This document shows positions 1,572-64,000 of a stretch of 64,000 bases of DNA, in pieces. The notes below the pieces were generated by a model, which was given only the letters and a program-made list of their open reading frames with translations, did not search any database and had not been told where the DNA came from. The stretch lies in NCBI GenBank assembly GCA_965371665.1, contig CBDUZI010000001.1, forward strand, positions 9,411-73,410. The letters are read 5' to 3'. The translations under genes were made by a program, and so were the position numbers. How positions within the stretch are numbered: the stretch's first letter is position 1; every line of letters starts with the position of its first letter. Source of the DNA: an uncultured bacterium. Lineage in GTDB: Bacteria > Oederibacteriota > JAAXVQ01 > JAUVAV01.

Positions 1572-4500
1572 TTAATTTCCTCCTTCCAATTATTATTGCC
1601 CACGATATAAAAAACGGTAAAATTCCGCTTTTCCCCAGGCTTTAGAGTGACTTCTTTGCCTAATAGTTCCATGGTATAAAAATTCGAGTCCTGCCAAACA
1701 CCGATTTGACCAATCTCCTCATGCTTGAATAATTGCATAAAATAATCTTTAGTAGCTTGGTTTAGCCCTACCACCCAACCCGCACGCGGTTCATAAGAAT
1801 CTTTATCGATTTTCGCAATAAATTTTTCAGTTACGAACTTGACTCTTTTCTTATTTTCAGGGTCAGAGATTGGCATAATCATCCTATGTTGCTCGTCCGC
1901 AAAATTATTTTTACCCGGAGCAAGATCAGGATGATTGAACCACTGATATTTCATGATGTCACCCGATAAGTTGGTAACTTGATAGTCTACCTGGAGGCGT
2001 CTTCCCTTAGCAGGTAGTATCATAGTTCTTTCGAGAAGGAGCCCCTTGCGGGTTTTAGTATACATTTTAACCGCTGCTTCATTCCCGTCATCAGTTACAA
2101 TCTCCGCCTCCCAATGATTATTCCAAACCACACCAGGCCAGCCCGATGGAAACCAGTCATTTATACCTCCGTATTCAATCCAGTCCCTATCACCTTTACG
2201 TTTCGCTATCTTAGGATAATTTTGATAAAGCATATTAGCACCGGTTTCGCGATGATAAAACGCCATTATTCTCCCGCCAATATCCTGAACGGCTTGAATT
2301 TCCACTTCGGCATTCGCTAAAATGACATCCTCGTCGCCACGCTTCATGATATCACCCATTAACACTTTAGCTTCCCCTTCAACCACAACTGGATATATTA
2401 ATTTAAATCGTTTTATTTCCTGGGGACATCTCAATTCAAAACCAAGGGTTTCTTTTCGAGCTTTCAAAGGCAATATGGAAAACTCCAACAGGACCTCCCC
2501 ACCTTTAGGAACGCTGAAGTTTAATTCTTGCGGTTCTACTTGCAAACCCTTTGAGGGGGTTAACATCACTGTTCCTTGGGTACTCATATTCCCACTAGCA
2601 ATCAGTCGAATAATACCTGTACTTTTCTTACCTTTCACCAGCACTCGTGGTCCTTCGCATGAAATAATTCGCCACACGGGCAAAACTTCAACTTTCTGAG
2701 GTTTAGACTTAAAAAAATTCTTCTTGACTCGAAAACTCGCAATAATGTCATAAGTTTTTTTCTTTTCAAGACTCGGTGGCAAAACAGAAAAAGTAAGTTT
2801 CTTTGTTTTCCCTGTATTTAGGTCCAACTTTTCTTCCTTTTTCCCTTTCCACGCTTTCGGCAGATTTAGCATCACCCTCCCTCTGACTTTTTCCGTGAAG
2901 TTATTCTTTACTTCCACTTCCAGTTTCGTCCATTTTCCCGCAGATACTGCTTGTTGGTCAGTCAGAATATCAACCTCAAAGGGCGAAATAACTTTAACAA
3001 TACCTTGGGATGAAACCGTTTTTACTTTTCTTCCCCGTGGAGTAATGAGTTCTCCTTTCAACCAGATAATATCTCCGGCTTCCGCGGTAGAAGGAATTTG
3101 AAAGGGGAAAACGGTTGAGATCACCTGGCCAGAAGCTAATTGGGGGATAGGACGCGTTTTCAACACGTGCTGAGGAGAAAGTGTGGCATAACCCGCCCGG
3201 GAATTAATCACAGGTTCGTTGCGTTTCACGAGCCATGCGGATAACGCTAAGCGAGCATTAGAAAGCACTTTCTGACTTAAATTCCTCGCTTCCAAACCAA
3301 TCTGAATCTCGGTATTAACTGTTGCACTTAACTTTGAAGCACGTACATTAATAAAATAATCCTGCTTATACTTTGCATTATATTCCATGACATATGTACT
3401 CGCTTCCGTAGCCGCCCCAACAGCATCCGGATAGAAGGAGATCGTCTGGGGTGTAGTTGCCACGAAGGTTATTGGTCTCCCCCCCTGCCGGACAGTAATG
3501 GCTTCATCGAATTTCCATTCCGCAGGACGCGGTAAGGTTAAGAGCGTTTTTTGATATTGCTGCAACTGGATAACCGTGATCCGGTTTTTTTCTCTTTCAA
3601 TGACGAGGTACTGGTCGCCGGTTAAATCAAATCCATAAAGACGGGAAAAGCGGCCGGCTAAAAAGGTCCCGGAATTATTTGTAGCTATAAAACCGTTTTT
3701 AGAAACTGTATGGTTTAATACCTCCAGTTCATGGACATTTGAAATATTCGCCAAAATACCCAGATCAGGATAGGCGGACCAGAAAATCCGGTTGGGCTCC
3801 GGCTGGGAATAATTCAGTAGTGGTTTGCCCACATATTTGGATACGACTCGTTTCTGTAATTGATCCGCCAGGGCAAACCATTTTTTTTGATTATGCCATC
3901 TAGAAACCCAGCGACCATTCAGCATATGGTAGCCATGGGCGAGATACCAGACTATTTTTTCATGACTCTCACAAAATACTTCATGGGCGAGGTCATGATG
4001 AAAAAAACAAACATGTTCGTGACCGAGATACTGCGCTATAGGAAAATATTCCCAGTTCCCTTCTCCGAAAAGGTTATTATAATCCACACTCTCCGGAACG
4101 GTAAAAGAAGCCAAGCCGCTGAAACCGCTCATCATGGGTATCAAGCGATCGTATCCCTGTTCAGTAAACAAAGGACCCAATTTCAGGTATGCTTCACAGT
4201 TTTCATACCAGGCTTGGCAATAACCGATCGGATTTTTTAATGTCGGATTTAAATCAAAATAAATAAAACGCGCACCAATCTGATCCAGGAATAATATATC
4301 GATACCATATTCTTTAAAAAATTTATTCGCAATATGATTCCCGGCTTTGACCACAGCGGGATGGCGAGGCGAAGCCGCCCAGCCTTTTCCGCCGGAAGGA
4401 TAGAATTCATATTTAAGATCATTCTTTAAATCCCGGCTCGCTATCTCTTCCGGACCACCTGCTCTTTCCAATGTCGGACTAATATTCCAGAAAGTCGGAT

Positions 4501-28600: not shown

Positions 28601-31600
28601 AGGGCTGCCAGGGCAGCGGCTGCCAAGCTGCCAATGCTCGAGACCAGTTGGACGCCTTCTCTGGGCAGGACCTGCCGCCAATGTTCCAGATATTCCAAAA
28701 TTTCTTCGGTCGGCGGCAAGCCTCGCAGGAAATCAGCCGTATCCGCAAATCCGAAATACTGCGCGTAGAAATTTAAATCCTTCTGATCGGTTGGAGATAA
28801 TTCATCATACGTGTATTCGTTGATCGCCGGCAGGTCTAGCTCAGGCAGATGATTCGTCGAATAGAGATACACTCCAGCATAAGAATCAACCAGATCGTAC
28901 AATTGTCCATAAGTCTGAAGCTCGTTCACATTGCCGATGTCTTCGATCCGGTAGCCGGCTTTGGCTAATATCCGCCGGAAGTCTCCCTCGGAAAACTCGT
29001 AACAGAAATATCCTCCGCCCCGGTATTGGTGCAGTTCCTGATTAAGGACATTGACCCAATTTCTCCAGTCACGGGCATCCAGGGTCTGCTGTCCGAGAAA
29101 CTCAGGCAGGGTCTGGGTTCCCGGGAAGGGCTGGGTAAGCAGCTGATCACCATAGGAGGCGAGAAAGAAAGCTAACTGGTCAAAGCGTAAATTTAAAGTA
29201 TTGACGAAGTTCTCAAAATCCCGATAGCCCATATTCTGCGCGATTTGATTGTATTCTTCCAGGGTGTAATCGCGGCCCAAAACGTGGTTTAAAGCACCTG
29301 CCAGACGCCCGACATTATCCAAAGTGATGGTTTCCTTGCCTCCCTGCTCCACATAAACCCGCTGACCGTCCTCACCTCTAAGATTCAAGGCGTAGAGCAG
29401 GTTTTCAAACAGGGCGTTAGTCTTACCGGACAAGGGATGGTAATAACCTGTTTTCCCAAAGTGGAAGGGACTGTCTCCCAGGAACTGGCTGAGCTGCGGC
29501 GGATAAACTTGCTGGTTTTTATATGTGGCCAGGTCCCAGATATAGTTCCAACTGCGGCTGGTTACATGGATGCCGCTCCAGATCACAAAGGCCGCGAAAA
29601 CGCTTAATTTTGAGCTGCGTGATACCCGATACAGGAAATTATTGAATCTTTTGGTCTTGGCCAGCGCCACCATCAGTGATAGAAAAAACACCGTACCAAG
29701 CTGTAATCCCCAGGTGTTGTACCACATCCGGCTGAAGTTGGCGATAATCTGGAGTTGTTTGGGTACTTCTTGGCTACCGGACAAATCCCGCAAAAATTCA
29801 CGGATCAGCGCCTGTTGCAGAGCCCGGTCCTCTGCCTGTACCGGGTAATTTTGGAGAGCCCGGGCATCGGGGTTGACAGAATCCAGCAGGGTAGACCGGG
29901 TCGGCTTTTCCCATACCGTCATTCCGCCCCGCAGGAAATCCAGGCCTGGCAGGACGCCAATCTGCTTCCAACCCGTGGCCACCAGCAGCCGGTTATATCC
30001 CGCATTTCCACTGATGACACGGTCTAAGCCGTATTGCTCATTATTTATTAAAATATCAATCAAGGGTGTCATGGAATTCATGCCGCGCTCAAAACCCAGG
30101 GTCGCAGCATCGTATCTGACTTCTGAAGGCGTTCCTTTGAAGCGCTGGTTGTACTGAATGGTATCCGCCATACGGCCCAGGGAAACGCTTGGAATGCTTG
30201 TGATAATCGGGAACTCCGCTCCTACGACCAGATAGCGGGTGTTCACCGTTCCCAGGCCTCTTAAACTGTTCGTATCTAAAAGCATGTTCAGATCCGGATA
30301 TCCAGACGGATGCAGGGGAACGATCTCTTGGCCGAGTTGCAGTTCTCCTGGTCCTGGAAATGCCTCTGGCACTCCTTCGGCGCCAGCCTCGATTTTAATA
30401 ATCCGTCTTCTCATATCTTGAGTCTGGGCGCCGATCACCAGGTTTGGCGTCGACCCTGTCTCCTGCAGAGCTATGTTTGCCGGTATTTCACCTTCCCATT
30501 CATAAACCGCTTCCAATCTTTCGCTCAAGGTTTCACCTTGAGCGGTGATTCCTTCCAAGTCAGACGAAACAATAGTTTTGACTACAAATTCATAATACTC
30601 ATCGGTTTCTACATCTTTTAAAAGCAGTTTTCTGACCTCCGGGGTATCCAGGTTGTAAACCATCACTCCTGGGGCATAAGCCGGGGTAAGCCGAACCCAG
30701 GTCTCTGGCTCCCCAGCGCGGTTCGCCATATCCCGAGACACCTCGATAATGATGTTGGAGTTGGCGCTCGGCGTGCGGCTGTGTACTCGGGCAATCAAAA
30801 ATTTAGGCAATTCCCGCAAGCGAAGTCTCCGGCTGGCAAATCCATATTCCTCGATTTGAGTTGTTGTAATTAGTTCCCCACCCTCGACCCGGGTCGATGT
30901 AAACCAATCCTCGGGATTTATTGGAATATTAACTTTCGGGCGAGGTAGTTGTCCGGGTTTGATTTTTTCCATAACCAAGGCTGGAACCCGGATAATGTAA
31001 AAGTCAAACCAGGCTCGGGCAGACCGGTTTTCAGTCTCGCTGAACTGATCGACTACGCCTAATGAAACTTCGAAGGATTGGTTTCCAGATAAACCCCATT
31101 CCCGGAGCAGATCTGCCAGATTAATCCTCTCCTGGTTACTCTGGCTGTTGAATGCAGCATAAACGTATCCGTCTGGCAGGGACGGATGATGAATGGCGAC
31201 ATAGTACGTGCGGGTTATGTCACTGATCTCCATATTCAGCCAGACATTTTCGCTGTCCAGATCCACGCGGATAGGCTCGGGCATGCGCACGCTGGCCCGA
31301 TTGGCGCCGGAAGTATTCGCGCCGCGAACTAGCAGGCCTCCCTCTTCATTCCAGTCTACCCGCGCATCCTGGAGGTGTGCCTCCTGCAGCTTCACAGAGG
31401 TATAATAGTCATCGATTATCTTGTGCGGTTCAATATCGCTTTTGTCGGCGTAAACATGCATGACCCGGTCTGCGCCCGCGGGATCGGACAAAGCCGCAGT
31501 GTTCTCCTGCCCTATCTCTCCAAAGCCAGCAGCTTCGACTTCAGGCGATTGCGAAACTTGCCCGGCCTCGAACGAGCCGAATCCTCCGCTGATATCATGC

Positions 31601-34600
31601 TCCGTGAATACCGCGCGGCCGATTTGGCGTACGTAATCATCGCCAGCTTCAGCCGGAAAATTCCCGAGCATCAAGAAACAGTTCAAGTTGTATTCATGCA
31701 GCATATTTTTGATTCTTTCGATCTGCGGGCCGACCGGTTGGTGCATGTCTTGCACCTGGATGGAGATACCATCGACCTGCGCCAGGGTAAGAGGTCTAAA
31801 CAGGATATTATGGAAGGCATCTGCATAGTCGAGCTGAAGAATGAGCAGATGTTTGTCACCGTCGATTTCTTTGAGGAAAGGAATCATTCGGTCATACCAT
31901 TTAATCAAGTCTTGTCTGAGATTGATTCTCTGCCAGTCCGTCTCGGGGGTGTTTCTCAACAGGACATCGGGTCTGTCGGACAGACTATAAACAATATTAG
32001 GATAACTATGCAGCCTTTCCACTATCGTCCGGACGTAATTTTTATTCTCTTTATAACTTTTTGCTATTTCGTCTGGGTAAATCGTATGTAACAACGCTCG
32101 ATTGAGGCTTATAATATCTTCTTCTGCCAGGATCTTTTGGGAAGCTGCCGCTTCTTTCGCTTTTGTTAATAATTGCTCAACTGCTGGAGATAGTTTGAGC
32201 TTGTCAGCATCCACTTTGGTATATAAATCAGGCATTTTCAGGACGGCATTGAATGCTTCAACCGCCTGTTTTTCTGTAAGGGTTGGCAGTTCCTCGATAC
32301 CCATGTCAAGTTCTGCAAGCAAAATAATATCGGCTTTACTTTCCCCTTTTAGTATGTACTTTAATCCCTCGACATCTAAATCGCCTTCGCGAAACACCGA
32401 AGAGGACTCAATGTCTCCCCCAAAATCCTGGTAATTTTCAAACAAGCTGACCACAACCATGATGTTTGCATCCTGGGCTAGCTGTATAAAATTTTCTAAC
32501 TTGTCCAAGTAGCTGATGTTGACATTGGGGCCGCCGAATTCAGTGTAGGGAATCTGCATAATGACACTGTTGGCATTCTTATCTCGCAGGCCTTGCACGA
32601 GTTGGCCCAGGGATTCCGGTGTAGCATTTTCCCACCAGCCCGGCTGGGAAGTGTCTAGATTAAATCCCCAAAGCTTGACCACGTTGCCCTGGTCATCGGT
32701 AATTTGTCCGTAGCCCATGGCCGGAGCTCCGCGCACCTGGTAAGCACCTCGTCCGCCCATTTCGATGGTTTGCAAGGACGGCACTTCATAGTCGAAGATC
32801 GCCTGCAGCTGTCCGGTCCCGGTAACCTGCAACCAGTAGTTACCTTCACGATCCTCCACCTCCCTGTAGTCCACGCCCACGTATAGTCCCTGACGGTTAC
32901 TCGGCATGGAAAATTCACTTCGCCAGGAGCCGATGTCGATGCCTGCCTCAGGATAAACAAAACCTAATCGAGACCCCCAATCCATGCTATTACCCTTAGA
33001 GTCAAGCATGGCTTGGATTTCAGGCGGACACTGGTCCGGCCGCAACGTCTCAATGCCCCGAATGTGCGCACCCATGCCGGCTACAGGGGAAACACCTCCC
33101 GTAGGCAACGTTTTGCGCGAAGACTCCGGGTCCCTTTCTATTTGGAGCGGTGATTCCTGCCATTGGCCGGTTATACCCATATCAAAGCGTATGGCCCCTC
33201 CCATCTTTGCCAGTTTCTCCGGAGATAACACGATGTAATAAGTACTGGGAGCAGGGATATCCCAAGTAGCTAAGGGTTTGGGAACACCCAACATAGATTT
33301 CCTGGACATTGCTTGTCCGCGGGTTTCTATGCGCGATATGGCCAGCCTGTCCGCTTCCTCGGTCGCCAGTATTTTAGCCTCGGCTATTTTCTCCTCTGTT
33401 TCCGCACCCTGCATGAATCTTTCCAGGGCGGTTTCATAATCGGCTCGCCAGGCGCGCATTTCTACATCGTTCCCAAACTGTTCCTCACTAGGATCTAGTT
33501 TAAAATACAATTGCGCATTGGGGGAAAGTTGATCCACCTGGATGGCAATAATATTGTAGCCCTCTGGCAGAACCATCTTCCGGCTGACATAGCCCCGGCT
33601 ATGCCGCGGGCTGGTTCCGATCAGCGTCAAGCCCTCGGAGTCGGCGCTGAATTTTAAACCGTATGGCTCCCACTCCCAAACCCGCACTCCCTTTACAGAT
33701 ACGTCGTACCGGTCCCCGGCTAGGGGAACACTCAAGCGGCCGCTGTCCAGATTATCGGGTACGCCAGGATCATACGGCAGGATTTCGGGAGCCGGCCGCT
33801 CGGTGTAGTCTACATTCAAACCCTGCTGGTAGGCGCGCATGATATTCATGGCAATACTATTATCTAAAGTTTCATCCTCGCCTATTCGGTTCCGGAAAAA
33901 GAGAGTTTGCAGATAGCTAGCTGCCCGCAACCGATCCCAGCCTTCAATATTAGTCCACTCCGTGGCCAGATCCGGGTTCAGGCTGAGGAAGGGATCGAAT
34001 CCGGCAAGGAGCGCTTCATCGGATAACGCCGGGTTTTTCTTCCAAAAGTTGATTCCCATCCTTTCTTCGTGTCTAATAAGATCGGTAGATGCCAGGAAAT
34101 AATTCAGGGCAGACGCGGGAACAACGGAGAGATTCGGGAATCCGGGAATAGTTATCTTTCTCCAGCGCAAAGCTTCCCGGGTTTTTTCGGCGTGGGCATC
34201 CACCATGCCGAAAAAGTTTTCTATGGTAAGCTGATTAGGCTCATAGGCCACGAATAATTCCGAATGCTGGATCGGCAGAGGCCTATGTATGCCTTTTAAG
34301 GGCTGAAATCGATCGACCATCCATTCCAGACTACGGAGGAAGATGTTCGAGCCTTCTGTAGCAATATTTTCATATTCTCCGGACTCAAAACGCCCCAGCC
34401 CGACCTTCACGTCCGCCAGGGGACTCTGGCCGCCGGCCACAGGCTCAGGCCGAATAAAATGGGCTTCTGGTCCATACCACAATTGCCGGGCATGGATCAT
34501 ACCGTCCAAAACTACATGCGCATCCTCCAGCGAATTAATTCCGTACTCTTTCAGCCGGCCTTCATCGATCAATCGTTGCAAAACCAGCTCGAAATTTTCT

Positions 34601-37600
34601 TCGTAAATCACGCCTTGGGACCACATAGCCTCGACATCAAATATCAGCTCTAAAACGTCCTTCAGACCTTCAAAGCCGTAATCCCTGAGTATTCCGTTGT
34701 GATGGAGGTAGATCACCAGCAGTAAGTCTTTGGCTCGGCCGCGCGCCGCATAAAAGTTCTGCTGATTATCCAGCAAAGCACACGCCTCGTTAATGTCTAT
34801 ATCGTAGTTTTCCAGGACACCACCGGCTTCCAGGTCATTTAGTACCTCCTCGAAGGGCGTGTCCTGTAAAACGTCCCAAAGGACATCGATATTGTCGTTG
34901 ACAAATTCCATCTCATGGAAAGGCAAAAGCCTGACGTCTTGCCGTTCCAGCAAATAGGCCGGATGCCGCGTCCAGACATAGCGATAAAGAATCTCGGGAG
35001 TCCAGTACTTAGAGAAGAAATACTTGGGCCAAGGCAGCAGTGTCTCCCCGTTCATGCCTGAGTCTTCTCTTAAAAGCCGCTCGAACTCCGCATAGGTAAG
35101 CGGATCATAACCATTCTGTTCAACGAGATGATTCAATTCAAGCAAGATGGCCCGCATGGCCACCTTCTGGTCAGAGCGCTCCACACCCCTTCCGATATTC
35201 GTTCTTTTCAGTTCCGGCATGAACGTGGATTTCAATTCATGCTGCAGGCGGTCGCCAGGATAAAAATTGAAAATCTGCCAGAGGTACTGCGTGACTCTCG
35301 ATTCCAGTTCCCGGGCAGAATACCTGGCCAAAATATCGTTCCGGTACGGCTCCCAAAGGCCGTGAGCCTGCAGAAGTCTCATTTTCTCCTGGGGTGAAAT
35401 CGTACCGGCCTGAAACCGCCGCAGGGCGATGATGTCCCTGACGTCGAACCGGCCTTCCTTTTGCAGGGCGTTCAATTGCACGAGCAATCTGTCCGCTTCG
35501 TCGGGAAAAGCCCATTGCTCGGTTAGCAGGTTATCGAAACCGGCCGGGGAAAAACCCATGAGGCTTAAAAAATCTTCCAGTTCAATGCCATTTTTCGGAA
35601 GAGACCGCTCAACGGCTGGAATACCGCAAAAGTCGAAGACCCGCGATTGTTCGGTGAACCCGGTTACTGTCGGCCCGACCAGCGGATTGCCAGAAGCGCT
35701 AATGGCAAACTCAAATCCACCTGCTTCGGCCACCATGAATTCCCGGTATTCCTGTTCAAAATTATCCGGCCGAAAGACCGCTTCATCCGGAACAATGTAG
35801 TTCCAGTAATATCGTTCATCCCAGCCATCGGCTTCAAAGGCTGCCCAGCGAAGACGGGTTTTTCTCTCCAACTCGGCCACGATCCATTGCTCATCCTGGA
35901 TTACGTTCTGCACGTTTTTGGCATTCACCTGGGAAGGCTTGAGGAAGCGGGCAATTTCATTCTGGATTCTGAGGTACCAGTTATACCTGGCCAGTTCGGA
36001 AACATTTGGATTATTCGGATCATAGCCGTAATTAATATCCCGCACCGTTCGGATGAAAAAGGTAAAACTGATGCCCATGTCCTGGCAGAAAGCCCTGATG
36101 CTCTGGTAGTCGCTTAAGTCCAGATGCTCCATTTTCCACACTTCAGTCTGCTCCGATTCCAGCCGGACATCTTCCAACGTTCCGCAACTATCTTCCGGGC
36201 TGGGATGGGTAGTTAAGCTAATTCTTGTTTCCACGACATCCTCGATGGGTATTTCCGCCTTTTCAATTACCATCAGGAGGTCCACCTGGCTGTAGCCGTG
36301 GATAAACCACGGTCTGACTTTTACAGTAACCTCATCCTTGGTAGTGGTTTTTACCGTTAGGATGATGTCAAGGTAGCCTTGCCTGCCCATATAATTACCA
36401 GTAGAATTGTAGCGTAAAAACCGGGTGGCCTGGATTTGTTCTCCGGATACGATCCAGCTGATTCCTGCTGCGGGTTGGTCAGCCAGGGATTCAAAGGCGT
36501 AATGATTCTCGACGCCTTGCTGTGTGGCGGTGAACCGGGTCGGGTCGGTGGCATCCTGCGCCAGCATCACCACGTCGCCGGTGATCTCTGCCGTCGCGCT
36601 GGTTAAAGGCATAACCATGGTCGGAAAAGGCTCGGCCCGAACCTGGTTCGCTGACCGGTAAAGCACCTCTTTGGTGCTTTGAGAAAGTAGATGGGAATCG
36701 ATGTAAGCAGGAATTTCACCCTCTTGCTGCGTTACCGGAGTAAATATGGTTTTTAAAGCTCCGGGAAAACCGCCTGTCTGTCGCTCCTCAGCTTTACGGG
36801 CGGCGGCTTGTGGTTTGCCCACTTCGCTGGTGGTTGAGCCAGAAGATGCGAAATCCGTTGCAGGCTTTCTGGAATCCGGACCGGTATAATAGATCAGGTA
36901 ATCCAGACCCTGTTGCAGGCTGGGTATGCGCAGCGGTCCGATTCGCATTTCTGGCGTCAGCATGGCAAGTCCTTCCGAATATAAATAACCTGATAGGCGG
37001 GGGGATTGTCCTAGCCAGGTAAGTACACTAAGGATAACCGGCGTGAAAAACCACATCAGTCTCCACGCTGCCTTAGAGCGCCAGCTTGCTTCCTCAGGCA
37101 GCTTCTGATTTCGCGCCTTTTCTTTGCTCGCTCTCCAGAAATCCGGACGTTCTGGCAAGATAGCCCGCAGCTTCTGCTTGTCCCGGAAAATCCAGAACAA
37201 TCCAGCAATCATCGAAACAAGCACTCCCGCGCTGACCGCAAACAGAAGAGGAGCGATAAAGTTGCCCATAAGAAAAGCAATAATGCAGAAAACCAGGGTC
37301 AGGCTGAAAATAATTTTCCCAAAAACACGCGCAGTGGATTTGCCCATGACACCGGTTTTTTCTGCAGCCACTAAGCCGAGCGCTGCCAGAATACTGATCA
37401 TTAGTGCAGCCAGGATATCTAAAAATGCAAAATGGATTGCTCCGAAAAGGACAACCGTAAGGACGAATCCGAATAAGAAGAAATAGCTGAATTTAAACAG
37501 GCCCTTGGTAATATCCCCGGCCACCTTCCAGGTGGCCCAGTTCAAAGGCATCTGGCGTAAATGCTGCACATACTGCCTCAGATTCCTGATGGAGCCGCGG

Positions 37601-40600
37601 ATCTCTCCCACCAGTTTTTCCAGCACCAGCAACAGCAGGAACAAGGCGATGACGGGCACGATCAGCGACAAGTTGAAAATTATTGATAGGATGATCATTA
37701 CCACGGCAGCCATGGCGACGACTTTCCAGCGGCTGCGGAGAAGTTGCTTTAATCCGAAGTAATTGAAATATTTGAATAAGACTGCGAGAAGAATAATTGT
37801 CGGCACTGTATAGACTATACTCATGGGATCGGCAGATAAAACCGTTATCACATTCTGGTAGGTGGAGATAAAAGCGGTAATTATCCAGTCGATAATATTT
37901 AGAATAATTTCAACTATTGGAGCAGGAACATATGGGACCACAATATTTCTCCAGACCCATATGCTAATTGGGACCGGCAGCATGAGTACGATCGCCCGGA
38001 TGATGGCCACGAAGAGGTCCTTGGTTAGCAAGACCGGGATTTTAAGCCGTTCCGGCATCTTTTGGACAACTCGCTGGTTAAATACCCAGGATATTCCAGC
38101 TCCCACCAGAGTGGTTTCCAGCATCCGAAGCAAGGCTTCACTAAATGGAATAGCGGTAATGATGCCCAGGCCAGGGACCATGAACAAAACCGCAACCTGG
38201 TACATCAAGGTCGGAATCACGCCATAGGCCATCTGGGACAGGGATTTCAAGCTACTGTGGCGGAAAACCCGTTCGATTAAGACTTCCAGGATATAGGCGC
38301 TCAAGGGGGCCAGGATGATAATCAAATTAACGGTGAGGATGGTTTGCCAGACATTATACTCCACGCCGACTTTGGCTAGATTGGTGATATTTTGACCCAA
38401 AAAATCAGAAATACCCGTGAAGAAGGCGAATACCAAAACATTCGCAAAAAACATTCCACTTATAGGCATCTTGAACCGGATAAAGTAATCTGCACCGTAC
38501 TTCCCGGATACTACAATGGCGGCCTTGACGGGTATCAAGATTTGTTGCTTAACACATTGCCACAGAGGCTGGTAATACCTTTCCCAAAGCTCAATCAGCC
38601 GATCTTTGAGCTTTATCAAAATATCCTTCACCCGACGCAATATATCCAAAATCTTCTTCTTCACCCACTTAAGCCCGTCGCTAATTTTCGTAATTGCCGT
38701 TTTCACAAAGCGGATCATTCGCTGGACGAACTCGATTCGCAGGATCAGAAACAGGAGATTTTTGACGAACCTGATGGCAGCTTTGACGCGATTAACGATT
38801 TTGATGACGATATTATCTTTAATCCAGATAAGAAAATTCACAATAATGGGACGGATGATCCGGACAAAGGGACTGACGATCTCCTCGTAAATCCTTTTCG
38901 GCAGGGTAATTGGCAGGACGAGGGCCAGCTGTTTGACCACGTGTCCGATCTCGTGAACGGTTATACGTACAAAGCCATGGGGATCTAATCCGATATCGGC
39001 CAGGATCCGGCCGATGGGGTTGACCTTCCAGACCCACTGTGCCCATCTCTGGTACCAGGGCAGCTCTCTTTGCAAGGTCTCCGCAACTTGCAGCATCATG
39101 TTGCGCATGACCCGGCTCGGCGTGCCCTGTCTGGATTGGAGGGCGCGGTTGAGCAAGGCCGTCTCGGTCAGGGCGCGTTTGCCTGCCTCGGTCTCGAAAA
39201 AGGCATAATAGTTTTCGAATTCCTGGGCAATTTTTAAGATATTGGGCGGAATGAGGTCTTTAAGTTCGTTTCTGGAGGGTTCACTGACTGCCATTTCCAC
39301 CGGTACTTCAACCGCCTGCTTTAATCCCAGGTACCGACCAAGCACACCTAAGACTATCAAGAGTCCCAGGCCCATGATGCTTCCAGCGAGGATGGCTGCT
39401 CCACCCATGAGCATGGTAACCATCCCGCCAGCCAGCAGAGCCAAGCCAGTAATACCCGCAATAATCATCCGCGTACTTACACGAATGGGGGTATCCACCT
39501 GGCCCTCCCCAGGCGCCATGGTTTCCGGTGGAGAGGTTTCCCTGGGCGGAACCTTATCCTGCGCGAATGGATACAGGGCCTCCAGGAAATCCCCCATCAT
39601 GGCCTCACGTGCCTGGTCAGAGGTAATGGCGTCGATAAACTTCAGCAGATCCGTAGTATATTTATTAGCCTGCATGGCTTCGGAATCCGATTCCACCACG
39701 TCCGTGCCCAAAAAGGTGATTCTTCCACCGAGCTCCTGATTAATCTTGATGGCTATTTTTTTGATTTCCAATTTTCCCCGCGACGTTTGGGCCAATTCCC
39801 GGATTTCATCGGCGATTTTGACCAAATCAATCGTGGTGCCTTTTTCGAGATAGAAACGCCGCTTGAAAAGCTGGAATAGTTGTTCCGCCGTGATCTCGAC
39901 CGCTTTGCCCGCGAAAAACGTCCGGTTTAAATGCCAGGCAAACAACTTCATGCCGTTCATGCGCATTTTAGCGACATCTTCCCTCATGATGGCTTCATAA
40001 CCGCCCAGAAAGAAGAAGCGTAGGCCTTCGGCCAAATGCACACGGTAAATATCCGGGATCGAGCGCAAAGCCATGGGCGGAGCTCCTGCGAAATTGGCCA
40101 GCGGTCCCGGCCGTCCGGTTCCGAAAGTATGGGACATTATGTGGATGGGACCCTGCCCCTCGATGACTCCCTGGTATTTGGCCAGATCCTCCTCCTCGAC
40201 CCAGCCGGTATGAAGTATCGAGCCGTACAACAGTCCCATGATGTATTTGGCATAGGCTTCACCCGCATATTTATCCCCGGCAAACATAGGACTCGGGTGA
40301 TCACCACCGGTAAAATGAATTTTCGGAATCACGCCAGGCAAGGCTTCTTCCACCGCCCGCTTCAGTTCTGCTTCCAGTTCATTCAAGCGCTCCTCTGCAG
40401 TCAGCCGGGCTTCCACCTCAGGACGTAGCTGAGCACGAAGTTCTCCCCGTTTTCTTTCGATTATGCGCACCATGGCGGGGTAATAAATGTCGGTAAATTT
40501 GTAGCTTCCCAGCTTGCCAAAGGTGAAAAATATCCATTTCTCTATTGGCACCCGCGTAAAGTCCACCGGTGGAGTGACCTCGGCCATGTCCAGCAGGTGG

Positions 40601-43600
40601 TGAGTAACCGCGCCGGTCCGGCCTTGGAAATTAAACCAGGGATTATAATCGGCGATTGCCCGGGCGTATTCCGGCTGAAGGAAAATGAGTTTGTTCAGGT
40701 AAAGGTAAATCAACTGGGAGAGTCCCCAGGTGCCTAATTCCTCTTTGGTCCCGGCCTTCACCTGGGTGGCCTGCAAATCCACTCTTTCAATCACGTGGTG
40801 ATAAGGCGCGCCGATATGGGGGGTTCCGATCACCAAGGAATTGAACAGGCGGGAAACATGTCCCACCACGGCGCCCATCGGACTCTTATCGCCTTGACTG
40901 GTGAAGAGCATGTTAATCATTTCCGCATCCGAACCGGGTTTCCAACTCTCGGTCAGGTTCCGGGCAAAATTGTAAAGCCCTCCCATCTCATCCCAGGTCT
41001 GGATTAAGCTGACATTATCATGTTCCAAGGCGGCTGAAGTGACTACGCCGAATTCATTTCGGCATTCAGGACATAGACTATGCAGGCGAATCACTCCAGG
41101 ATAACGCCAATGTCCGTAGTTCACCAGCAAGCGCAGCTCCACATCCGGCCCCGCCGCATTGGCCAGTGGGATAATGGTATTTTGCATGTATTCGGACACG
41201 CCTCCGCTCTTTCCCAGTCTGCCCATTTCCCCACCAACATCTATCAACTGCCCGTCCGGATTATCTTCGAGTCTCATCCCAGGAATAACCTTTGCCTCAT
41301 CATCCACAAAACTGGAAAGGGTAGCCACAACCCCGGTACCCAGTTTGGAGGCTAATCCGGATTTCACTTCAGCCTCGGATGTCATAAGGCCTTTAACCGT
41401 ACCGACCATATCCGACAATTCAAACCCATTCGCATCGATTCGCCCCAGTTCGGCTACCGAGTTACAAACTGTTTGCAAATAAGTTAGACACTTTAAGGCA
41501 TAAGTCCGATTAGTGTGATCGGTTAAATTACTGATGTATCCTTGGCTGGCCAATTCATAATATAATCCTTGCACGCGCTGGTCGGTAAAAGCGATGGGCA
41601 CGCCGGCTTCAACATGCGCTTTGAGGGCTTGATAAATCACTTCAATATCATCTCCCAGTTGCTGCATCTGAGAACGCATATTCTTAGCCACATAAGTATC
41701 CCTAACCCTTAACCGCTCAGCAACCAAGGTAATGTCATGTTGAGCTTCGGGTATTCTCTCTGAAACGCGCAACAAATAAATCAAGTCCTCCATGCTTTCC
41801 GGGTCAGAGAGATTTAGGTTCTGCAGAAGCTCCCACACGGCCTGAAGTTTCTGAATTTTCTCAGGGGTAAAGGTCTGCCCGTCCCGAACTTTTTTAAAGA
41901 TTTCATGCAATTTGGCGATTTCCGACGGCTGCATCCATTTTTCCAGCAAAATGTCATCGCGGCCACGGGATTTAATCTGATCAACCAGAGCCCTTAAGCC
42001 TTCGTCTTCCTCACGGTAACCCGGCCCCATGGCATCCAAAGGAAGCCTGCTGGCCTGTCTTCTCTCCCGGCTGATGTCCTGGCGCACCTCCTCGGCCACC
42101 AGATCCGCGCGTATGTCACCCTTCCACTGCTGGATTTCATATAGAATTTTTAACAATTCGATCTGGCTCGGATCCTGCCGCAAGGTTTGCAGGGCAGCCA
42201 GTTTTTGCCCTATCCGATCGGGAAGAATCCTGCCCTGGACGATCAAATTGTCGGATAAGCCGGCCGCCTCGGAAGCCAAACCGTACTCTGGCATATGGAT
42301 TAAAATCTGATCAATGCTTCTTACTGCGCGGGGCAGGTCATTACGCTGATATATCCCAATGCCCGGACCCATAGTGGTGCTGACAGTCAGGACAATTTTT
42401 TCTCCGGGTTTCTTTCCCAAGCGCCTCCGGACTTGGGTAATGGCCTCTCTGAGTTCTTCTTCCGTGATCTCTTGGTTTAAGATGGCCTGGTCCTGGATCA
42501 TCGTGTCTATATCATGCCACATCACATTAAGCTCGTGCGCCATCTGCCCCATAGTACCGTAGAAGCGGTGCCGGCCCTGGCGATGGATTTGTTCGTCCTC
42601 TGCCCGGAATTCGTGCTGGTCGCCAATTTTGGCTCTCTGCCCTAAATAATCGAGATCACCTTGATCGCGGGCCAGGACAGTTTCCTGATAAGCGACGGTA
42701 GCAAGGATAAGGGCCAAACCGACAGCGGCAACTAACATTAAAGTTGGCGCAATAATGCTGAAGACGACTATAGCCGGCAACATAACCAGCGCGCAGGCAA
42801 CGGTAGTTCCGCTCTTACCCGGTATGCGAGCCGTTAAATAAAACCCGACTAGAGCAATAAAAAAAACCGCAAGAACGACCATCAAAGCCGGGGTAGCAGT
42901 CATGGCTGCCAGGGCAATGCCGGCCAAACCCATCACACCCAAGGCAACGCCGAATACGAAAAATGTTTTTCCCAGGAAGCCTAAATTCCCGAAGCTTCTG
43001 GCAGCCTGATAATGCTCGACGGCTACACTGCTCCTGCGGCTTTTTTCAATCATGTTTTCATACTTACGCAGGTTGTAATTAAACTCAGAGTAAAAATACT
43101 GCTCCCGCAGCATTTCGATGGTACGGCTCGCCTCTTCAGCGCACAGACGGGCCTGTTCTACCGCCTCGGGAGGCTGCCGACCGGCCGCAATCGCGACTTC
43201 AGCTTGTTCCATGGCCTGTTGCGCCTCCGCTTCCTGCTGTTTCGCAATCACTATTTGTTCCTGTAAAAAATCATTATAACTTTGGGCATCGTAACCCAAA
43301 ACCGGTTGATCATTGGCGTTGGTGATCAGATGTTCCATAAAATCAGCCTGAGTCAAAATGTTGGTTTTATTTCTTTGAGTAGGCTGTAAATCAAAAAGAA
43401 TCGTCCGTATCTTAGTGAAAAAACCATAGTCCGGACTGGATTTAAGCTCTGCCTGGTAATAATCCGTTATGTGTACATTGCCCTCGGCATCGATCATGAC
43501 TCCTGAAAAATCTTCGGTCCCATGATAATTCAAGCCGTGGATATCGAAGACATTTATTGCGGTCTGGAACTTTTTGGCCAGGCCTATTATCCGGTTAAAA

Positions 43601-49600: not shown

Positions 49601-52600
49601 TCTTCATCCTTTTCGATTTTCTCCATCTCCGCTTTTCGGAGTTTTTCCAAGCCCACTTTCGCGGCTAGTCTCAATTCCTTTATCTCTTCCTCCGTAGGAT
49701 TGCTTTTTACCTTAATGACCAGGTGATTGCTTTTCCTGTCCTTGTCCTTTCCTTTTTTAGTAATGCTTTCTTCTATCTGCTCGATGGGAGTAACCTCCTC
49801 CAGAATGTCCTTGCTCGCTTGCCAACTTTTCGTGCCGTCGTTATAAGGATGGTTGGTTCCGTCCATTAACAGCACTTTCCAATCGACTCTTTCATTCCAG
49901 GCCGCGTTATCGTCGATTTGCCGAACTTTTACGCGCAGAAAATCCTCCCCATTAGGATGACCCAGCACCGGGTCCTCGCTAAGATTGGGGAAAATCCGGT
50001 TCTGTTCCCGGTAAAACGAAATTGCCACGCCCAGGAGCAGTCTGTCCTTTCCTTCCGGAATCCTGGTGTTTCTCATATCCACCTTTGCTTCCGCAAGTTT
50101 CAGAATATAGCGAAACATGGTCCAATCTATTTCCTGCATATCATTTGCACTGAGCCGAATAACTTTTTGACCGCTTTGCTTAAATAGCTTTATTTGGTCC
50201 GAGCTCTGTCTTTGGTATTCTTCCGGGGTTAAAACCAGATATGGCAGAAAAGCACCCTGCATAGCCACAGCCTCTGCTCTTTCCATCAGCTTTACGCGGG
50301 TTTGTTCGATATCTTGAGAGAGAGAAGGGCTTGCGGCCTCAGACGTCCGGACCTGGGATATTGCCTGGAGTCCATCCCTGACTTTTTCCAAGGGCGCCAG
50401 CAATTTTGGCGTGAGCCCTCCTTGCTCATAGTTTCGAATAACTTCATTTATATTCTCTAAACTATTGTCAATATTATCCTGACGCCCGGGATTGTCTTGA
50501 TACAGCTTGAGCAATTTATTAAATGCTATGACTTTGGCTTCATACAAAATGCCTTTGCGGCCGATATGCACCAGAATGGCCTGGGCACCTGCCACATCGC
50601 CGGCGCTGCCTAATTCCAACGCTTCCCGGACGATCTTATTAATCTCCGAAATGACTTCGGCATTGGCTTTTTCGGCTTTTTTATTTTTTTCCTGTTCCTT
50701 TTCCAGGATTTTAATCGCCTTGCTTTTATCGATCAGTCGTTTCTCGCCTAAAGCCTTGATTAAGTCAGGATCGGCTTGCTTGCGCTTGAAAACATCATCC
50801 AAATACTCTTTAAATTCATCCGCGTTCGGCGAGAGCAAGGCCGCCGCAAGCACGCTGGACATAACCATGGTCATGGCTTCATCGGCTTTCAACCAGGTCA
50901 TATCCGTGTCTTGCTCATCAGCTTTTTTGCGTTTTTCATTGACCTTGTTCTTGACCGCAATGAGCGTGGCCCTGAGATCTTCCGGCGTGGTCTCGGCGGT
51001 GAATAAATCCTCCAAATTTTTTACGGCTTGCTCTTTTTGAGCCCTCGTTCCTTGCCATAAGTGCTCAAACAGTCCGCCGGATTTAAAGTGTTCATCCCTT
51101 AGTAAACTATTGCCTTCTGTTGGACGGATTTCGGGTCGGGCAGGAGTGGCCCGGCGTTTTTTGTAGAAGTAGCTTAAAAGGCCGGCGATCAGCGTCACGA
51201 TAGTAACTTGGATAGCAGCCAGGGTGATCCGGCCCCGGCTGGTTGAGAACAAGGGAGCCCGGGGCGAACCTTCCAATACGATGTGATCCAATATCTCAGG
51301 ATTGGTCTGGGCCACATACTGAATAACTTCTAAATCCGGGACCAGGCCTTCAGGGCTTAAAACTCTCCCGCGCTGCAGCGCCTCGGGCAGATACTTGAAT
51401 TCCCAGGCCATGGCATTCCCGGTCTGAAGATTGCAGATAAGCCCGTCGCATTGATCCATAACCGGTTTCATTCTTTCAAAAAGTTCAGCCCGGATCCAGG
51501 CCTGCGATTTCCCCTCTGCCAGCCAGGCCTTTATCTCTTCCTGGTAAGAATCCATGGAAAAATGCCAGGAATCAAAGGTAATTCCAACCGGTGCGGGTCT
51601 ATCCGGATGTCGGCCGGCCCAGGCGTCTCTCAAGGCCTTCGCATACTCGATCTGATTCATGAGGTATTCATCCTGACTTATGCCGGCGGCTTCCAGGGGT
51701 TCGAACAATTCCCTGGCTACCGTGGTTTCAAAGGTGATGGTAATATTGTTATCCGCGGCTTTTTCCAGCAGGGCCAGTTCTTCGGCCGTAGGCGCTTTTC
51801 TGGTCAAATGGTCCTCCATCGCCTGGGGATCTTGTTCCAGGGTCTTGACGTCGGGTTTGGTCAAGCGGAAATAATTCGCCCAGTCATAAGGATGAATGTT
51901 GGCCTGCGTAGGTTCGGCATGGGGCGTATTAACAATATCCGTAAGGGATAAAACCTCTTCTTGCCAGGGAATGTGATAAGAGCCGACTTTCAGGTTTAAT
52001 TCTTTGGCAGCCTGCAATTGGTCTGGGGTGGCATATACCTCGACTCTTTCCGCTCCGGTATAAAGCTGCCAATATTTTATATACATACCCATGAGTGGTT
52101 TCAAAAGAATACCCCGCATAGACCAGAAGCCGGTAGTAGTTATGTGCCCGCGGGACATAAGTTCCTGGGACAATTCAGAAAGCGGGGCCTCCTCGATTTT
52201 CAGCTGCTCGAGCACCTGGGCCGGCTGCGCCACATCCGGACTCACCTGGGTGGTAGCCGGGGCGGCCTGCATTTCCGTGACTCCCGCAGCCTCTGGTTGC
52301 GTCATGGCGGAAACATATTGATTTCCTGGAACCCCAAAATACCAGGCGCCGGCTGTCAGGGTCAAGACACTGAGTAGGGCAAACGGAAGGAGTAGCGTCA
52401 AATGTTTGCTTTTGAAAATATTCTGTACTGCTTGCGGCAGCTTATCGTTTTGCAGCAGCCTGGGTATACCAACTCTTTGCTGCACCTGGTTCCGGATTAA
52501 CAACAATGTTCCAAGAACAATTATAGCCGTACCGCTCAGTCCAGCCACCCAACCGGAAAACAGAATGAATGCAGCCACGCCGCTTAAAAAAAGCGCTGCG

Positions 52601-55600
52601 CCTGTCAAGGTTGTCAGTACCGGCCTTTCAACCGATCTCCTGGTAGAAAGGGTGATATCTGTCATGCGATCACGCCAAGATCGATAAGCGATCGTTAGGG
52701 AGCCATCGTTTTGCAGCCAATAGGTTCCTACTGCTCCTCGCAATTTGGGATCCGCTCTAAACGTACGGACAACTCGCCAAATATTCCGCCTATACAGTCG
52801 GGTGGTTGCTTCATCAGCCGTAACTACCAGCAGCACCTTTTGGGCATTGCAGTCGATGCTTAACGCTGTTTCACGAATAAATTCCATGAGCTCATTGTTT
52901 AAACGCCCGGGATCATTAATCTGTATGACAACTAGCGGACGGTTCACCAGGCCAAAACTGGCTATTTGGATCGGAGAGGCCTGTTCGGCTTGCAAATTAT
53001 CCCCACCAATCTGGCGGAACCGGCCGGCCCTCGCCAGCTGGTAAAGCCTATTATCATCGGCGTTTGCAGGGATCGGCTCAAAGGTCTGTGAAACCCAAGG
53101 TTTCAATGCTTCTGATTCGGCAGTCACTGCCGCTTGTACATCTGTCGGCTCTTTGGCTGCCACCATTTCGGCTTCGGGAACTCGGGTTTCAGGCACAGCA
53201 ATCGGTACTGTCGCCACTGACGCAACCAGCTCGGGTACGGCTTCACCGAAGAAATCCTGAAAGATGGCGGCGGCCATGGTTTTGTATCGCATCAAGGGAT
53301 CTCGGTTTTTCAAAAACATCCTTAAATTAACATCTTCCCTGGTGCTCTCCACCGGATGCAGGAACCTTGCACCCCAAGCCAGGCGCAAAGCAAAGATGAT
53401 ACTTTCGCGCAGCTGATCCGGAGTGCGCTTCTGGGATTGATAACGTAAAGCCGCAGCCCGCACAAGATTTTCCCGGAAATGTTGCCGGGCTTTGGCTGAA
53501 CTGCCCTGCCCTATAACGGATTGATATTGGTCGGCCAGCGCTCTGAGGTCTGCCTGCGATAAGGCAATACCGCGTTCCTGTAGTTCGGCAACCAGCAATT
53601 GAAATCCATTGAGGTCCAGCAACCGTTCCGAAGTTATTTCCGCTTGAATTCTGCGAATCAATTTCCGGCGCAAATCTCCACCTTTAGTTTTGTCTGCCTG
53701 GGCTTGCCGGATAAACGATCGTAAAGAGGTGCTCATATGGGGAAATAGGGTACTAAGGGCCCTAACCATTCCAGAGACTTCCCACTCATACGGATTGGCA
53801 GCCCGCGCATGCATCTCCACGATCAGGGCGGCCCGCCTTTTCAAGGCTCTGCGTAATGCTCTCCGGTTGGTAAAGCGTGCGGTAAGTTCGCCCAAGGTTT
53901 GCTGGATTGCGCCTCGAACAAAGGTATCCAGCTCAGCAGCATCATATTTCTTAACCTGTTGGATTAAAGCGCGGAATTGTTTATCCGCCGAATCCAGCGG
54001 TTGTAAATACTGGTCATTGTAAGCACGCATATCGGCATCCCGCCGGGAAATTCCCCGATGGATACGTCGAATATATTTAACCACGTTCTTACCCAGGGGG
54101 GTGCCGACCAAATTAACCTTCGTGTCACTTTCCAGGCTCTGGACAAGTTTTTTGACGAAATCAGGTGCATAAGTCTGGAAGATATCATCATCCATCAAAC
54201 TGTAGATGAACTGGGCAAACCCGCGTAAACCCTGCCGGGCCACGCGTCCGAAAAGCTGCTCACGCGCGGTCTTGCTCGGCGGAATCTCGGCTTCGATGGC
54301 CAGCATGTCAGGCCCTACGACGTTGAAGCCCAGAGTACCGCGGGGGTTGGTAATGGTAACGACATTAGGCAGGGCCGCGATCTCACGAATGGCTTCAAGA
54401 TTTTTCTGAGTATCGGAAGAAATTTGACAAAGTGTCAGGATCCGATATTGTTCCCTAATACGCTCTTCTGCAGCCTGCCGCGCCTTGGGTTCAGTAATCT
54501 TCGCGGCTTTGGCCATCTGGACGCGTATTGCCTTTCCTTGGGCCTTAGCCTGGGCCACAATGCGGGCAACCTTTTCAGGCGAAGCGCGGGCATCGATGAC
54601 TTCCACCGTTAATCCGGGCTGTGCTCTCAAAGTCTTTAAAAGACTGTGGGTTAAATTCATTAGCTTGCGGGTAGTGTATGTTCCGAGCAAAGTTCCGGCC
54701 AGGGGTCTGTGCTGCCCTATGATCTCCTGCAGGGCCTCGGTCTGATGATAAGGATATAAGTGAATCTGATCGGCATAACGATCCCGGACCAGTGAGAGTC
54801 CGTGGTCCGAAGGCAGGAACAGCGGCTCAAATCCCATGCGCTCGCGAAATTCCTTGAGTTCCTCGCGGTTGCCGATAGTGGCTGACATATAATGCAAATA
54901 GGGATAACGCCGGGCATATTGGGCTATGGTCAGCTGGCTCTGATAGTCGCTGATTCCGGTAAACCGGATGCCGGCCCGGATCGCCGGATTAGTTTCTTCC
55001 AGAAAGGCTTTGGCCTGCAAGGCTTGATGGGTACCTCCCCTGATTTCCTGGCCATGCATGTATTGCCCGGTTAAGCGGTTGTAAAGGACTATAACTCCTT
55101 TAACCAAACCATACTCAATTCTACCCGCTTGTTGCGGTCTGGCGCGCGATTGGCCTTCGGAAAGATTGGTCTGGATGAATAAGAATTGCGCATCCAGCGC
55201 GGTCCGCAGGTAATGCTGCAGGACTGGAAATTCCGTCAAATCCCTCCCTTGGGGTAAACCCAATATGGCTTTTACCCGCGAACGTCCTGCCGGGGTTAAT
55301 GCCGCCAATTTGATATCTTCTTCAATCTTTACTTTGTACAGGTCCGCATCCTCTGCCACCAGCTTAGCAACCTGGGCAAAATATAGTCGTATGACCGCTG
55401 GATTAGAACGGACCAAATCTTCAATTTGCCGGAAAGGCGGCAGGGATTTGAAACCAGCCTGAGCTAAAAGTCTCGGTAGTGCCTCACGAGCCTGGGAACT
55501 TAGCCGGAGCTGTTCAGTCGCTAAATCCATCTCCAACATACCAGGAGTCTCGACGAGAGCTCCTATCAACATTTTAAGCCTCTGGTCCTGAAGCGGTTCC

Positions 55601-64000: not shown

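Follow-up and report, generated by a model that had tools for sequence, protein, structure and literature searches.

The 64,000-nt window analysed here (contig CBDUZI010000001.1 of an uncultured bacterium, assembly GCA_965371665.1, positions 9,411 to 73,410) carries one giant minus-strand open reading frame (ORF) of 12,729 codons, whose product contains two homologous (beta/alpha)8 barrels of the glycoside hydrolase (GH) family 5 type, each followed by beta-sandwich (BS) modules. Barrel 1 keeps the catalytic residues expected of a retaining GH5-like glycosidase, and barrel 2 has lost them, both catalytic glutamates being absent also from all three of its orthologues. The explanation that we favour, and regard as probable, is a multi-pass membrane mega-protein with one live and one dead GH5-like/BS cassette.

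Catalytic residues of the two barrels

The features that carry this reading are as follows; positions are those of the window, and residue numbers are amino acids (aa) of the giant protein.

25663..63852, minus strand: giant ORF (ORF list and translation; hydropathy scan; colinear fragments P0004, P0005 and P0006)
62518..63405, minus strand: barrel 1 (labelled GH1), aa 150-445, GH5-like (beta/alpha)8 barrel of clan GH-A (PF00150; family profile against PDB)
63025..63030, minus strand: N275-E276, acid/base motif of barrel 1 (NEI, with I277), invariant in family alignment A4
62752..62754, minus strand: E367, predicted nucleophile of barrel 1 (E366-E367 in FEEMG), E-x-G invariant in A4
32404..32700, minus strand: N-terminal part of barrel 2 (labelled GH2), aa 10385-10483, strands 1-3 and helices 1-2 (33% identity to barrel 1; hhalign 95.6%)
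31573..32067, minus strand: C-terminal part of barrel 2, aa 10596-10760, helix 3 to strand 8 (PF00150 after insert removal; hhalign)
31972..31977, minus strand: D10626-R10627 in the Asn-Glu acid/base columns of barrel 2 (D-Q, D-R and D-R in orthologues P0004, P0005 and P0006)
31660..31662, minus strand: N10731 in the nucleophile Glu column of barrel 2 (S, D and D in P0004, P0005 and P0006)

Barrel 1, searched as aa 140-460, matched PF00150 with 32.8 bits (gathering threshold 23.5, E 6.4e-8) over profile positions 12-269 of 272. An NE(I/P) acid/base motif and a downstream EE nucleophile candidate had been proposed for this barrel in the initial annotation, and both were located, as N275-E276-I277 and E366-E367. 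The spacing check that it called for gave 91 residues from E276 to E367, with a nucleophile expected ~90-130 residues downstream of the acid/base. The rest of the GH5 set, comprising R197 on strand 2, H335 and Y339 on strand 6 and W404 on strand 8, was also present and aligned with homologues. When barrel 1 was compared with PDB as a single sequence, the best E was only 0.0035; its family profile matched Op5Man5 (7bob, E 6.7e-16) and a GH5_18 enzyme (7lr7, E 2.4e-11), with further matches to GH2 beta-glucuronidases (~1e-8) and GH5 mannanases. The NE columns of the profile aligned to GNELD of Op5Man5 (Glu156) and the E-x-G columns to LLQEFG (Glu281), and mutagenesis has confirmed these two glutamates as the acid/base and the nucleophile, respectively (PMC8233224).

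A word-indexed search returned three homologues of barrel 1 (P0001, P0002 and P0003), and an exhaustive HMMER search added P0044, P0060 and P0063. The Asn, the Glu and the E-x-G motif are invariant in the first three and kept also in the other three; the conserved motifs of the family are NYYPS..W, N(T/S)xR, NE(I/L)D, E-x-G and W-(T/S)-L-x-D. No relative of barrel 1 was found by a genome scan of the GTDB representative genomes, a set that does not include the source genome. Judged by these sequence features, barrel 1 is a divergent but complete GH5-like retaining glycosidase domain. A beta-mannoside would be the nearest precedent for its substrate, the nearest characterised enzymes being GH5 beta-mannosidases and mannanases. 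Op5Man5 (7BOB) and the GH5_18 beta-mannosidases (7LR7, 7LR1 and 6GVB) share with barrel 1 the clan GH-A barrel, the strand-4 Asn-Glu and the strand-7 Glu, which align with those of barrel 1, but this similarity is at the profile level only and the substrate is not transferable. Op5Man5 also differs in being a soluble homotrimer with a Rossmann-like second domain and no signal peptide, whereas barrel 1 forms one loop of the 12,729-aa membrane protein, with three jelly-roll modules behind it.

The relationship between the two barrels was evident in a BLASTP alignment of aa 146-244 with aa 10383-10478 (33% identity, E 1.3e-9), and the (I/M)...EFGGPNV... core previously noted in both barrels is present in both. 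The native sequence of barrel 2, which a helical insert interrupts after strand 3, reached 18.5 bits against Pfam Cellulase, below threshold and over its first ~100 residues only. With the insert deleted in silico, the match to PF00150 rose to 30.2 bits (E 4.1e-7) over profile positions 2-167. When barrel 2 was aligned with the barrel 1 family by MAFFT, the C-terminal two-thirds were misplaced owing to the insert; this alignment was superseded by insert removal, insert-free orthologues and profile-profile alignment. In the latter, a four-sequence barrel 2 profile was compared by hhalign with an eight-sequence barrel 1-family profile, giving a probability of 99.7-99.9% over 208-253 columns and E values of 1.3e-26 (local) and 2.9e-33 (global). 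Because this alignment runs from strand 1 to strand 8, barrel 2 is, at the sequence-profile level, a complete barrel homologous to barrel 1. PF00150, BLASTP and hhalign thus agree with the initial annotation on two clan GH-A barrels in one ORF, and show them to be homologous and GH5-like; the positions that it gave for them (62620-63405, aa 150-411; 31660-32670, aa 10395-10731) were correct.

Word-indexed searches with barrel 2 and its BS module returned no match, and relatives came only from the exhaustive HMMER search, which found three orthologues, P0004 (52% identity), P0005 (41%) and P0006 (40%), all of them giant-protein fragments. P0004 and P0006 are NCBI proteins from metagenome-assembled genomes (MAGs) of FCPU426. 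In addition to the substitutions listed above, the strand-6 His column (H335 in barrel 1) holds Q10699 in barrel 2 and Gln in all three orthologues, and the strand-8 Trp column (W404 in barrel 1) lacks Trp in all four. The strand-2 Arg (R197 in barrel 1) is lost in barrel 2 and P0004 and kept in P0005 and P0006. A strand-4 motif, (S/T/G)-D-(R/Q)-P-D, is strictly conserved in 4/4 giant-protein copies of barrel 2. The nearest relatives outside giant proteins, P0012, P0033 and P0051, are PF00150-positive and keep NEP, WGEFG and the Arg, His and Trp. Because the three orthologous giant-protein fragments also lack the catalytic residues, barrel 2 is most likely a maintained pseudo-glycosidase that is conserved in its lineage.

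The public names of two of these orthologues are discordant: P0005 and P0006 (MCK5241089.1 and MBN1595029.1) are annotated as 'phage tail tape measure protein, partial' in one case and as 'cellulase family glycosylhydrolase, partial' in the other, and the latter name rests on a catalytically dead barrel. Within the barrel 1 family itself, the catalytic motifs of P0062 are gone, with SARPE in place of NE-x-D and SGVG in place of E-x-G. Counting P0062 besides barrel 2, catalysis appears to have been lost more than once within this GH5-like group.

Beta-sandwich modules and predicted membrane placement of the cassettes

Four BS modules were delimited in the giant protein.

62062..62487, minus strand: BS1a, aa 456-597 (hidden Markov model [HMM] and repeat comparison)
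61645..62061, minus strand: BS1b, aa 598-736 (65% identity to BS1a; HMM match)
61198..61644, minus strand: BS1c, aa 737-885 (32% identity to BS1a, E 5.7e-20; HMM match)
30973..31470, minus strand: BS2a, aa 10795-10960 (23-26% identity to BS1a-c, E 5e-6; HMM match; conserved in P0004, P0005 and P0006)

The underlying BLASTP alignments paired aa 456-594 with aa 598-735 (65% identity, E 2.7e-55), with aa 750-892 (32%, E 5.7e-20) and with aa 10810-11009 (23-26%, E 5e-6), and the BS HMM found exactly four copies of ~140 aa each. The three tandem beta-sandwiches described earlier after barrel 1 (61200-62460, aa 465-884) and the one after barrel 2 (30975-31275, aa 10860-10960) were therefore recovered, at the positions given. 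An AlphaFold2 model of the first copy was all-beta with eight strands and a mean predicted local distance difference test score (pLDDT) of 61, rising to ~75-82 over residues 45-130, the first ~44 residues of the repeat being unmodelled. Type-B jelly-roll carbohydrate-binding modules (CBMs), namely CBM65, CBM11, CBM29, CBM86, CBM22 and CBM15, which share the general fold and size of the BS modules, were among the best fold matches, together with non-carbohydrate domains (Kex2 P-domain, GOLD and collagen-binding domains). No Foldseek match fell below E 1e-3; the top one was the CBM65 of a Cel5A (1.6e-3, TM-score <0.5), which lies C-terminal to a GH5 catalytic domain, as the BS modules do. The BS modules belong to no CBM family by sequence or by significant structural match and matched no Pfam or NCBIfam family (nor did any other module match NCBIfam); their 17-sequence family profile returned nothing from PDB, and word-indexed homologue searches with BS1a-c gave no match.

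Elsewhere, a BS module directly follows the barrel in P0012, P0033 and P0051, which keep the catalytic residues, and follows barrel 2 in P0004, P0005 and P0006. P0033 (552 aa), P0051 (547 aa) and P0012 (1,701 aa) show the same order of GH5-like barrel and BS module as the giant cassettes. Outside giant proteins, barrel 2 has no closer relatives than these three, and P0012 is colinear with aa 10367-11485 of the giant protein; they differ from barrel 2 in keeping the Arg, Asn-Glu, His, Glu and Trp and in being normal-sized metagenomic proteins. P0054 (from Elusimicrobiota) and P0066 consist of three or four tandem BS copies with signal-peptide-like N-termini, and P0057 and P0075 have two BS copies each. 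The GH5-like barrel and BS module thus form a recurring cassette, in which the BS part is an autonomous, probably extracytoplasmic module. We consider it reasonable to describe the BS modules as modelled jelly-roll, CBM-like domains of a new family without assignment, with a putative role in carbohydrate binding. As for the initial annotation, which took them for binding modules, the fold of many CBMs was borne out by AlphaFold2 and the fold search, and membership of a CBM, Pfam or PDB family was not.

A serious, although less probable, alternative is that the BS modules are structural: either ancillary domains that stabilise the barrel, as in GH30, GH39 and GH51, or modules for spacing or adhesion that hold the enzyme away from the membrane. 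This would fit the missing CBM, Pfam and PDB family matches, the generic jelly-roll character of the fold matches, non-carbohydrate domains included, and the single BS copy that always stands directly after the barrel in P0012, P0033, P0051 and the barrel 2 orthologues. However, three tandem copies follow barrel 1, and the BS-only arrays of P0054 and P0066 point to an autonomous module and not an obligatory partner of the barrel; many of the top fold matches are, moreover, type-B CBMs.

The placement of the cassettes relative to the membrane was approached through a hydropathy scan, which found ~50 transmembrane (TM)-like hydrophobic segments along the giant protein. Those that bound the cassettes are listed here.

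63547..63780, minus strand: N-terminal cluster of approximately three TM helices, aa 25-102, ahead of cassette 1 (hydropathy scan; duplicated module)
61054..61191, minus strand: hydrophobic segment of 46 residues, aa 888-933, one or two TM helices, closing cassette 1 (hydropathy scan)
29653..29715, minus strand: TM-like segment, aa 11380-11400, closing the ~2,400-aa loop of cassette 2, with five Lys/Arg in the next 15 residues (hydropathy and charge count)

The other bound of the cassette 2 loop is a Lys/Arg-rich stretch after aa 8891 with a weaker hydrophobic segment at aa 8929-8950, and Lys/Arg are enriched on the distal side of both aa 8839-8891 and aa 11380-11400. Under the positive-inside rule, such a sequence pattern favours an extracytoplasmic cassette 2 loop, and together with the hydrophobic segments it would place the cassettes at the cell surface. 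Signal-peptide-like or membrane-anchor N-termini are found in the barrel 1 homologues P0001, P0003 and P0044 and in the GH-BS cassette proteins P0033 and P0051 (the last two judged by eye).

Cassette 1 could instead be cytoplasmic and trim imported oligosaccharides in the manner of the GH5 exo-mannosidase Op5Man5, an arrangement that we regard as unlikely. Op5Man5, the best solved match, has no signal peptide, a sugar ATP-binding cassette (ABC) importer is encoded immediately downstream of the giant gene, and aa 888-933 could be a two-helix hairpin, which would leave the topology open. The homologues with signal-peptide-like or membrane-anchor N-termini (P0001, P0003, P0044, P0033 and P0051) argue for the outside, the adjacency to the ABC genes is not conserved, and an odd number of N-terminal helices with the N-terminus inside would put cassette 1 outside.

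Proposed model and the state of barrel 2

In the model that we favour, the giant ORF would encode a multi-pass membrane mega-protein of an FCPU426-related bacterium that took up two copies of a cassette made of a GH5-like barrel and BS, a cassette found also in the form of ordinary ~550-aa enzymes with signal-peptide-like N-termini. Cassette 1 (aa 150-885), held between the N-terminal TM cluster and aa 888-933, would most likely act as a membrane-tethered retaining beta-glycosidase, with E276 as acid/base and E367 as nucleophile, and its three BS modules may bind glycan or serve as spacers. Cassette 2 (aa 10385-10960), in its ~2,400-aa loop, would be a paralogue that has lost the catalytic Asn-Glu, the Glu that serves as nucleophile, the His of strand 6 and the Trp of strand 8, and the most likely role of barrel 2 would be to bind glycan or act as a scaffold, with no hydrolysis. 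Its active-site-loop face would, in this genome, have received the orphan helical insert. Such a barrel may be compared with catalytically dead glycosidase homologues such as the GH18 chitinase-like lectins, glycan binding by barrel 2 itself being putative. Those lectins likewise keep the barrel fold with other residues in place of the catalytic carboxylates, and are conserved under selection; they belong to clan GH-K, not GH-A.

Several observations weigh against this model. The homologues of barrel 1 are few and distant (26-33% identity), and no other giant protein yielded an orthologue of cassette 1. The topology comes from a crude, hand-made hydropathy scan in which aa 888-933 may be one helix or two, and published work has noted that topology prediction is unreliable for giant proteins of this type. 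The adjacency of the giant gene and the ABC permease is not conserved in FCPU426 relatives. An AlphaFold2 model of barrel 2 from a five-sequence alignment had a pLDDT of 42, and the residue assignment on strands 6-8 comes from sequence-profile alignment alone. Finally, a pairwise alignment to the mannanase 8gf3 sets NTP, and not DRP, under NEP. The acid/base Glu is missing in barrel 2 under either register. Cel5A-type enzymes give DRP as the register of the strand-4 motif, and the alignment of orthologues and paralogues favours DRP over NTP.

The insert that interrupts barrel 2, which the initial annotation had missed, was delimited as follows.

32068..32403, minus strand: orphan helical domain of ~112 aa, aa 10484-10595, in the loop between strand 3 and helix 3 of barrel 2 (missing from P0004, P0005 and P0006)

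It was found at this place in this genome alone, 3/3 orthologues being without it. Its family (~112-115 aa) has at least 51 members among the proteins returned by the search, which occur as stand-alone proteins of 115-140 aa, in tandem, within other very large proteins and as fusions to PilZ, RDD or DUF4330, and share the motifs GDLD, AFN and LNRALL-x-IYP-x-E. No Pfam family matched it, and the family profile returned nothing from PDB. Loops that follow the beta-strands of a (beta/alpha)8 barrel lie on the face that normally forms the substrate cleft, and the insert would accordingly sit on the active-site-loop face of barrel 2.

Barrel 2 might also be an enzyme by non-canonical chemistry, such as a substrate-assisted, Asp-pair, transglycosylase-, phosphorylase- or lyase-like mechanism, to which the helical insert contributes residues. 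Some (beta/alpha)8 glycosidases do rely on Asp pairs or on the acetamido group of the substrate; none of the four copies departs from the (S/T/G)-D-(R/Q)-P-D motif at strand 4, Asp stands at the nucleophile column in P0005 and P0006, and conservation across orthologues of 40-52% identity shows selection on the domain. We nevertheless consider this quite improbable, because no carboxylate is conserved at the nucleophile column (N, S, D, D); the His of strand 6 and the Trp of strand 8, which shape the -1 subsite, are lost, and orthologues without the insert imply that it is no part of a conserved mechanism.

The proposal of the initial annotation that polysaccharide is cut at both ends of the protein, by two active hydrolases with CBMs, draws on the GH5 homology of both barrels and on the same beta-sandwich module after each. 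It did not survive for barrel 2, and we consider it very unlikely: barrel 1 has both a family assignment and its catalytic residues, whereas the catalytic glutamates of barrel 2 are missing, with D10626-R10627 for Asn-Glu, N10731 for the nucleophile and the conserved His and Trp gone, and neither Glu occurs in its three orthologues, while the full set is present in the nearest relatives that look active. Least probable of all is an origin of the giant ORF in faulty assembly or annotation, or its production as more than one polypeptide, in which case 'opposite ends' would be meaningless; the sequence is metagenome-derived, and proteolytic processing has been put forward in the literature as a possibility for giant proteins of this kind, but 38 kb run without a stop at ~50% GC, and the separately assembled MAG fragments P0004, P0005 and P0006 are colinear with aa 7768-12618 (36-57% identity), which argues that the ORF is real.

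One extension of the favoured model is speculative, and we assign it a low probability: a division of labour at the cell surface, in which the live barrel with its BS array cuts glycan and the dead barrel is a lectin-like receptor or sensor. The fused SecY and SecA-like modules described below might then thread the protein's own loops across the membrane, and the PilZ fusions of the insert family elsewhere would hint at signalling linked to cyclic di-GMP. If this were true, the BS modules would count as a new family of CBMs, and a new class of glycan-binding domain, derived from GH5, would be represented by the dead barrel.

Architecture of the giant protein, related systems and neighbouring genes

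The whole giant protein (38 kb of coding sequence, unbroken) gave four Pfam matches: Cellulase/GH5 at aa 170-407, SecY, the SecA DEAD-like and P-loop domains, and a weak SecA wing/scaffold. The remainder was Pfam-dark. The SecY domain (PF00344, aa 2062-2373, 138 bits) covers profile positions 1-304 of 306, i.e. its full length, and the SecA DEAD-like and P-loop domains span aa 2475-3241 (PF07517, E 8.1e-16, plus PF21090). SecY thus stands in frame and directly upstream of the SecA DEAD-like, P-loop and weak wing/scaffold parts (aa 2062-3546; 53215-57669, minus strand), a fusion that seems noteworthy.

Giant genes of the 'Archaeovorin type' in Omnitrophota encode many TM segments, divergent SecA DEAD domains and glycosidase/CBM-like folds, and have solute-binding proteins, ABC transporters and glycosidases downstream; SecYEG was reported not to be syntenic with these genes, which carry SecA-like domains (West-Roberts et al. 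2023, bioRxiv 10.1101/2023.11.21.568195). The giant protein of the window resembles them in being one very long multi-TM ORF with a divergent SecA DEAD domain, GH/CBM-like folds in Pfam-dark sequence and similar downstream genes. Unlike them, it comes from an FCPU426-like source, measures 12.7 thousand aa as compared with at least 30 thousand aa, and has a full-length SecY directly upstream of its SecA-like part; nor did Pfam detect a peptidase, methyltransferase or NUDIX domain in it. Glycosidase/CBM-like folds in giant multi-TM proteins are known from Omnitrophota, where they have been tied to attachment and cell-wall digestion, and a modular GH5-type carbohydrate-active enzyme cassette inside such a protein is an extension of this theme to another uncultured phylum, FCPU426, and not the opening of a new one. 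The modules can be recognised as cassettes taken over from GH5-like enzymes of the ordinary kind, whose N-termini resemble signal peptides, and the long-kept non-catalytic copy cautions against scoring each 'GH domain' of a giant protein as degradative capacity. Two unannotated domain families were defined, the BS jelly-roll (a candidate new CBM family) and the ~115-aa helical domain (at least 51 proteins). Current understanding is not overturned by these results, whose value lies chiefly in annotation and in the choice of constructs for biochemistry.

Several repeats were found along the giant protein. The three-helix TM module is duplicated, with aa 1-101 (63550-63852, minus strand) 59% identical to aa 1035-1133 (60454-60750, minus strand). 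The region ahead of the second copy, aa 1-1034, consists of the TM module, barrel 1, three BS modules and a TM segment; no orthologue of it was found, and it may be a later addition ahead of an older N-terminus. A Pfam-dark domain of ~300 aa occurs at aa 3921-4222 (51187-52092) and aa 5981-6284 (45001-45912), both on the minus strand, with 26-29% identity between the copies. A region of P0057 (3,370 aa) and P0075 (4,223 aa) matches its first copy at 47% identity; these multi-domain proteins have BS modules and the C-terminal domain in common with the giant protein as well, which suggests shuffling within one common module set. A helical segment of ~155 aa without a family match is tandemly duplicated at aa 1643-1946 (58015-58926, minus strand; 44% identity). 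A GT2-type glycosyltransferase at aa 4860-5140 (48433-49275, minus strand), considered by eye from DAD and QAGFKAF motifs, was not supported by Pfam or by PDB sequence search.

Downstream of the giant gene lie genes for two CUT1-type ABC permeases, for Fn3-like, OmpA and SlpA-like proteins, for a 1,738-aa DUF6259/NPCBM_assoc protein and for a sugar-type solute-binding protein (SBP). The permease adjoining the giant gene recurs with an unchanged sequence on contigs of a soda-lake mat metagenome (ZORZ22-1_SAMN30647028). It is 76-79% identical to those of 'candidate division FCPU426' and related unclassified MAGs, and some ten neighbouring genes are syntenic with loci of the same MAGs, at 45-84% identity. 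Because of this identity and synteny, and because the closest relatives of the distal part of the giant protein, P0004 and P0006, come from FCPU426 MAGs, the window is FCPU426-like by sequence; assignment to Omnitrophota was ruled out by the same synteny and identity.

In three loci of FCPU426-related MAGs (L004, L006 and L007), the gene order is [207][358][1204][491][352]-permease-permease-[1738 DUF6259]-[SBP]. In the window (261-25338, minus strand), the permease pair has been relocated to a place immediately behind the giant gene, and six genes, including those for the OmpA-domain and Fn3-like proteins, that are unmatched in these loci separate the pair from the rest. No giant ORF was found in the FCPU426 MAGs within the 10 kb fetched upstream of the permease. 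Because the permease pair sits among different genes in these relatives, its adjacency to the giant gene is regarded as a local rearrangement and as weak functional evidence. The 1,738-aa protein with DUF6259 and NPCBM_assoc domains (1568-6784, minus strand) shows 52-61% identity to its counterparts and lies beside the sugar-type SBP in 4/4 related loci, and it is probably the main secreted glycosidase-like protein of the locus.

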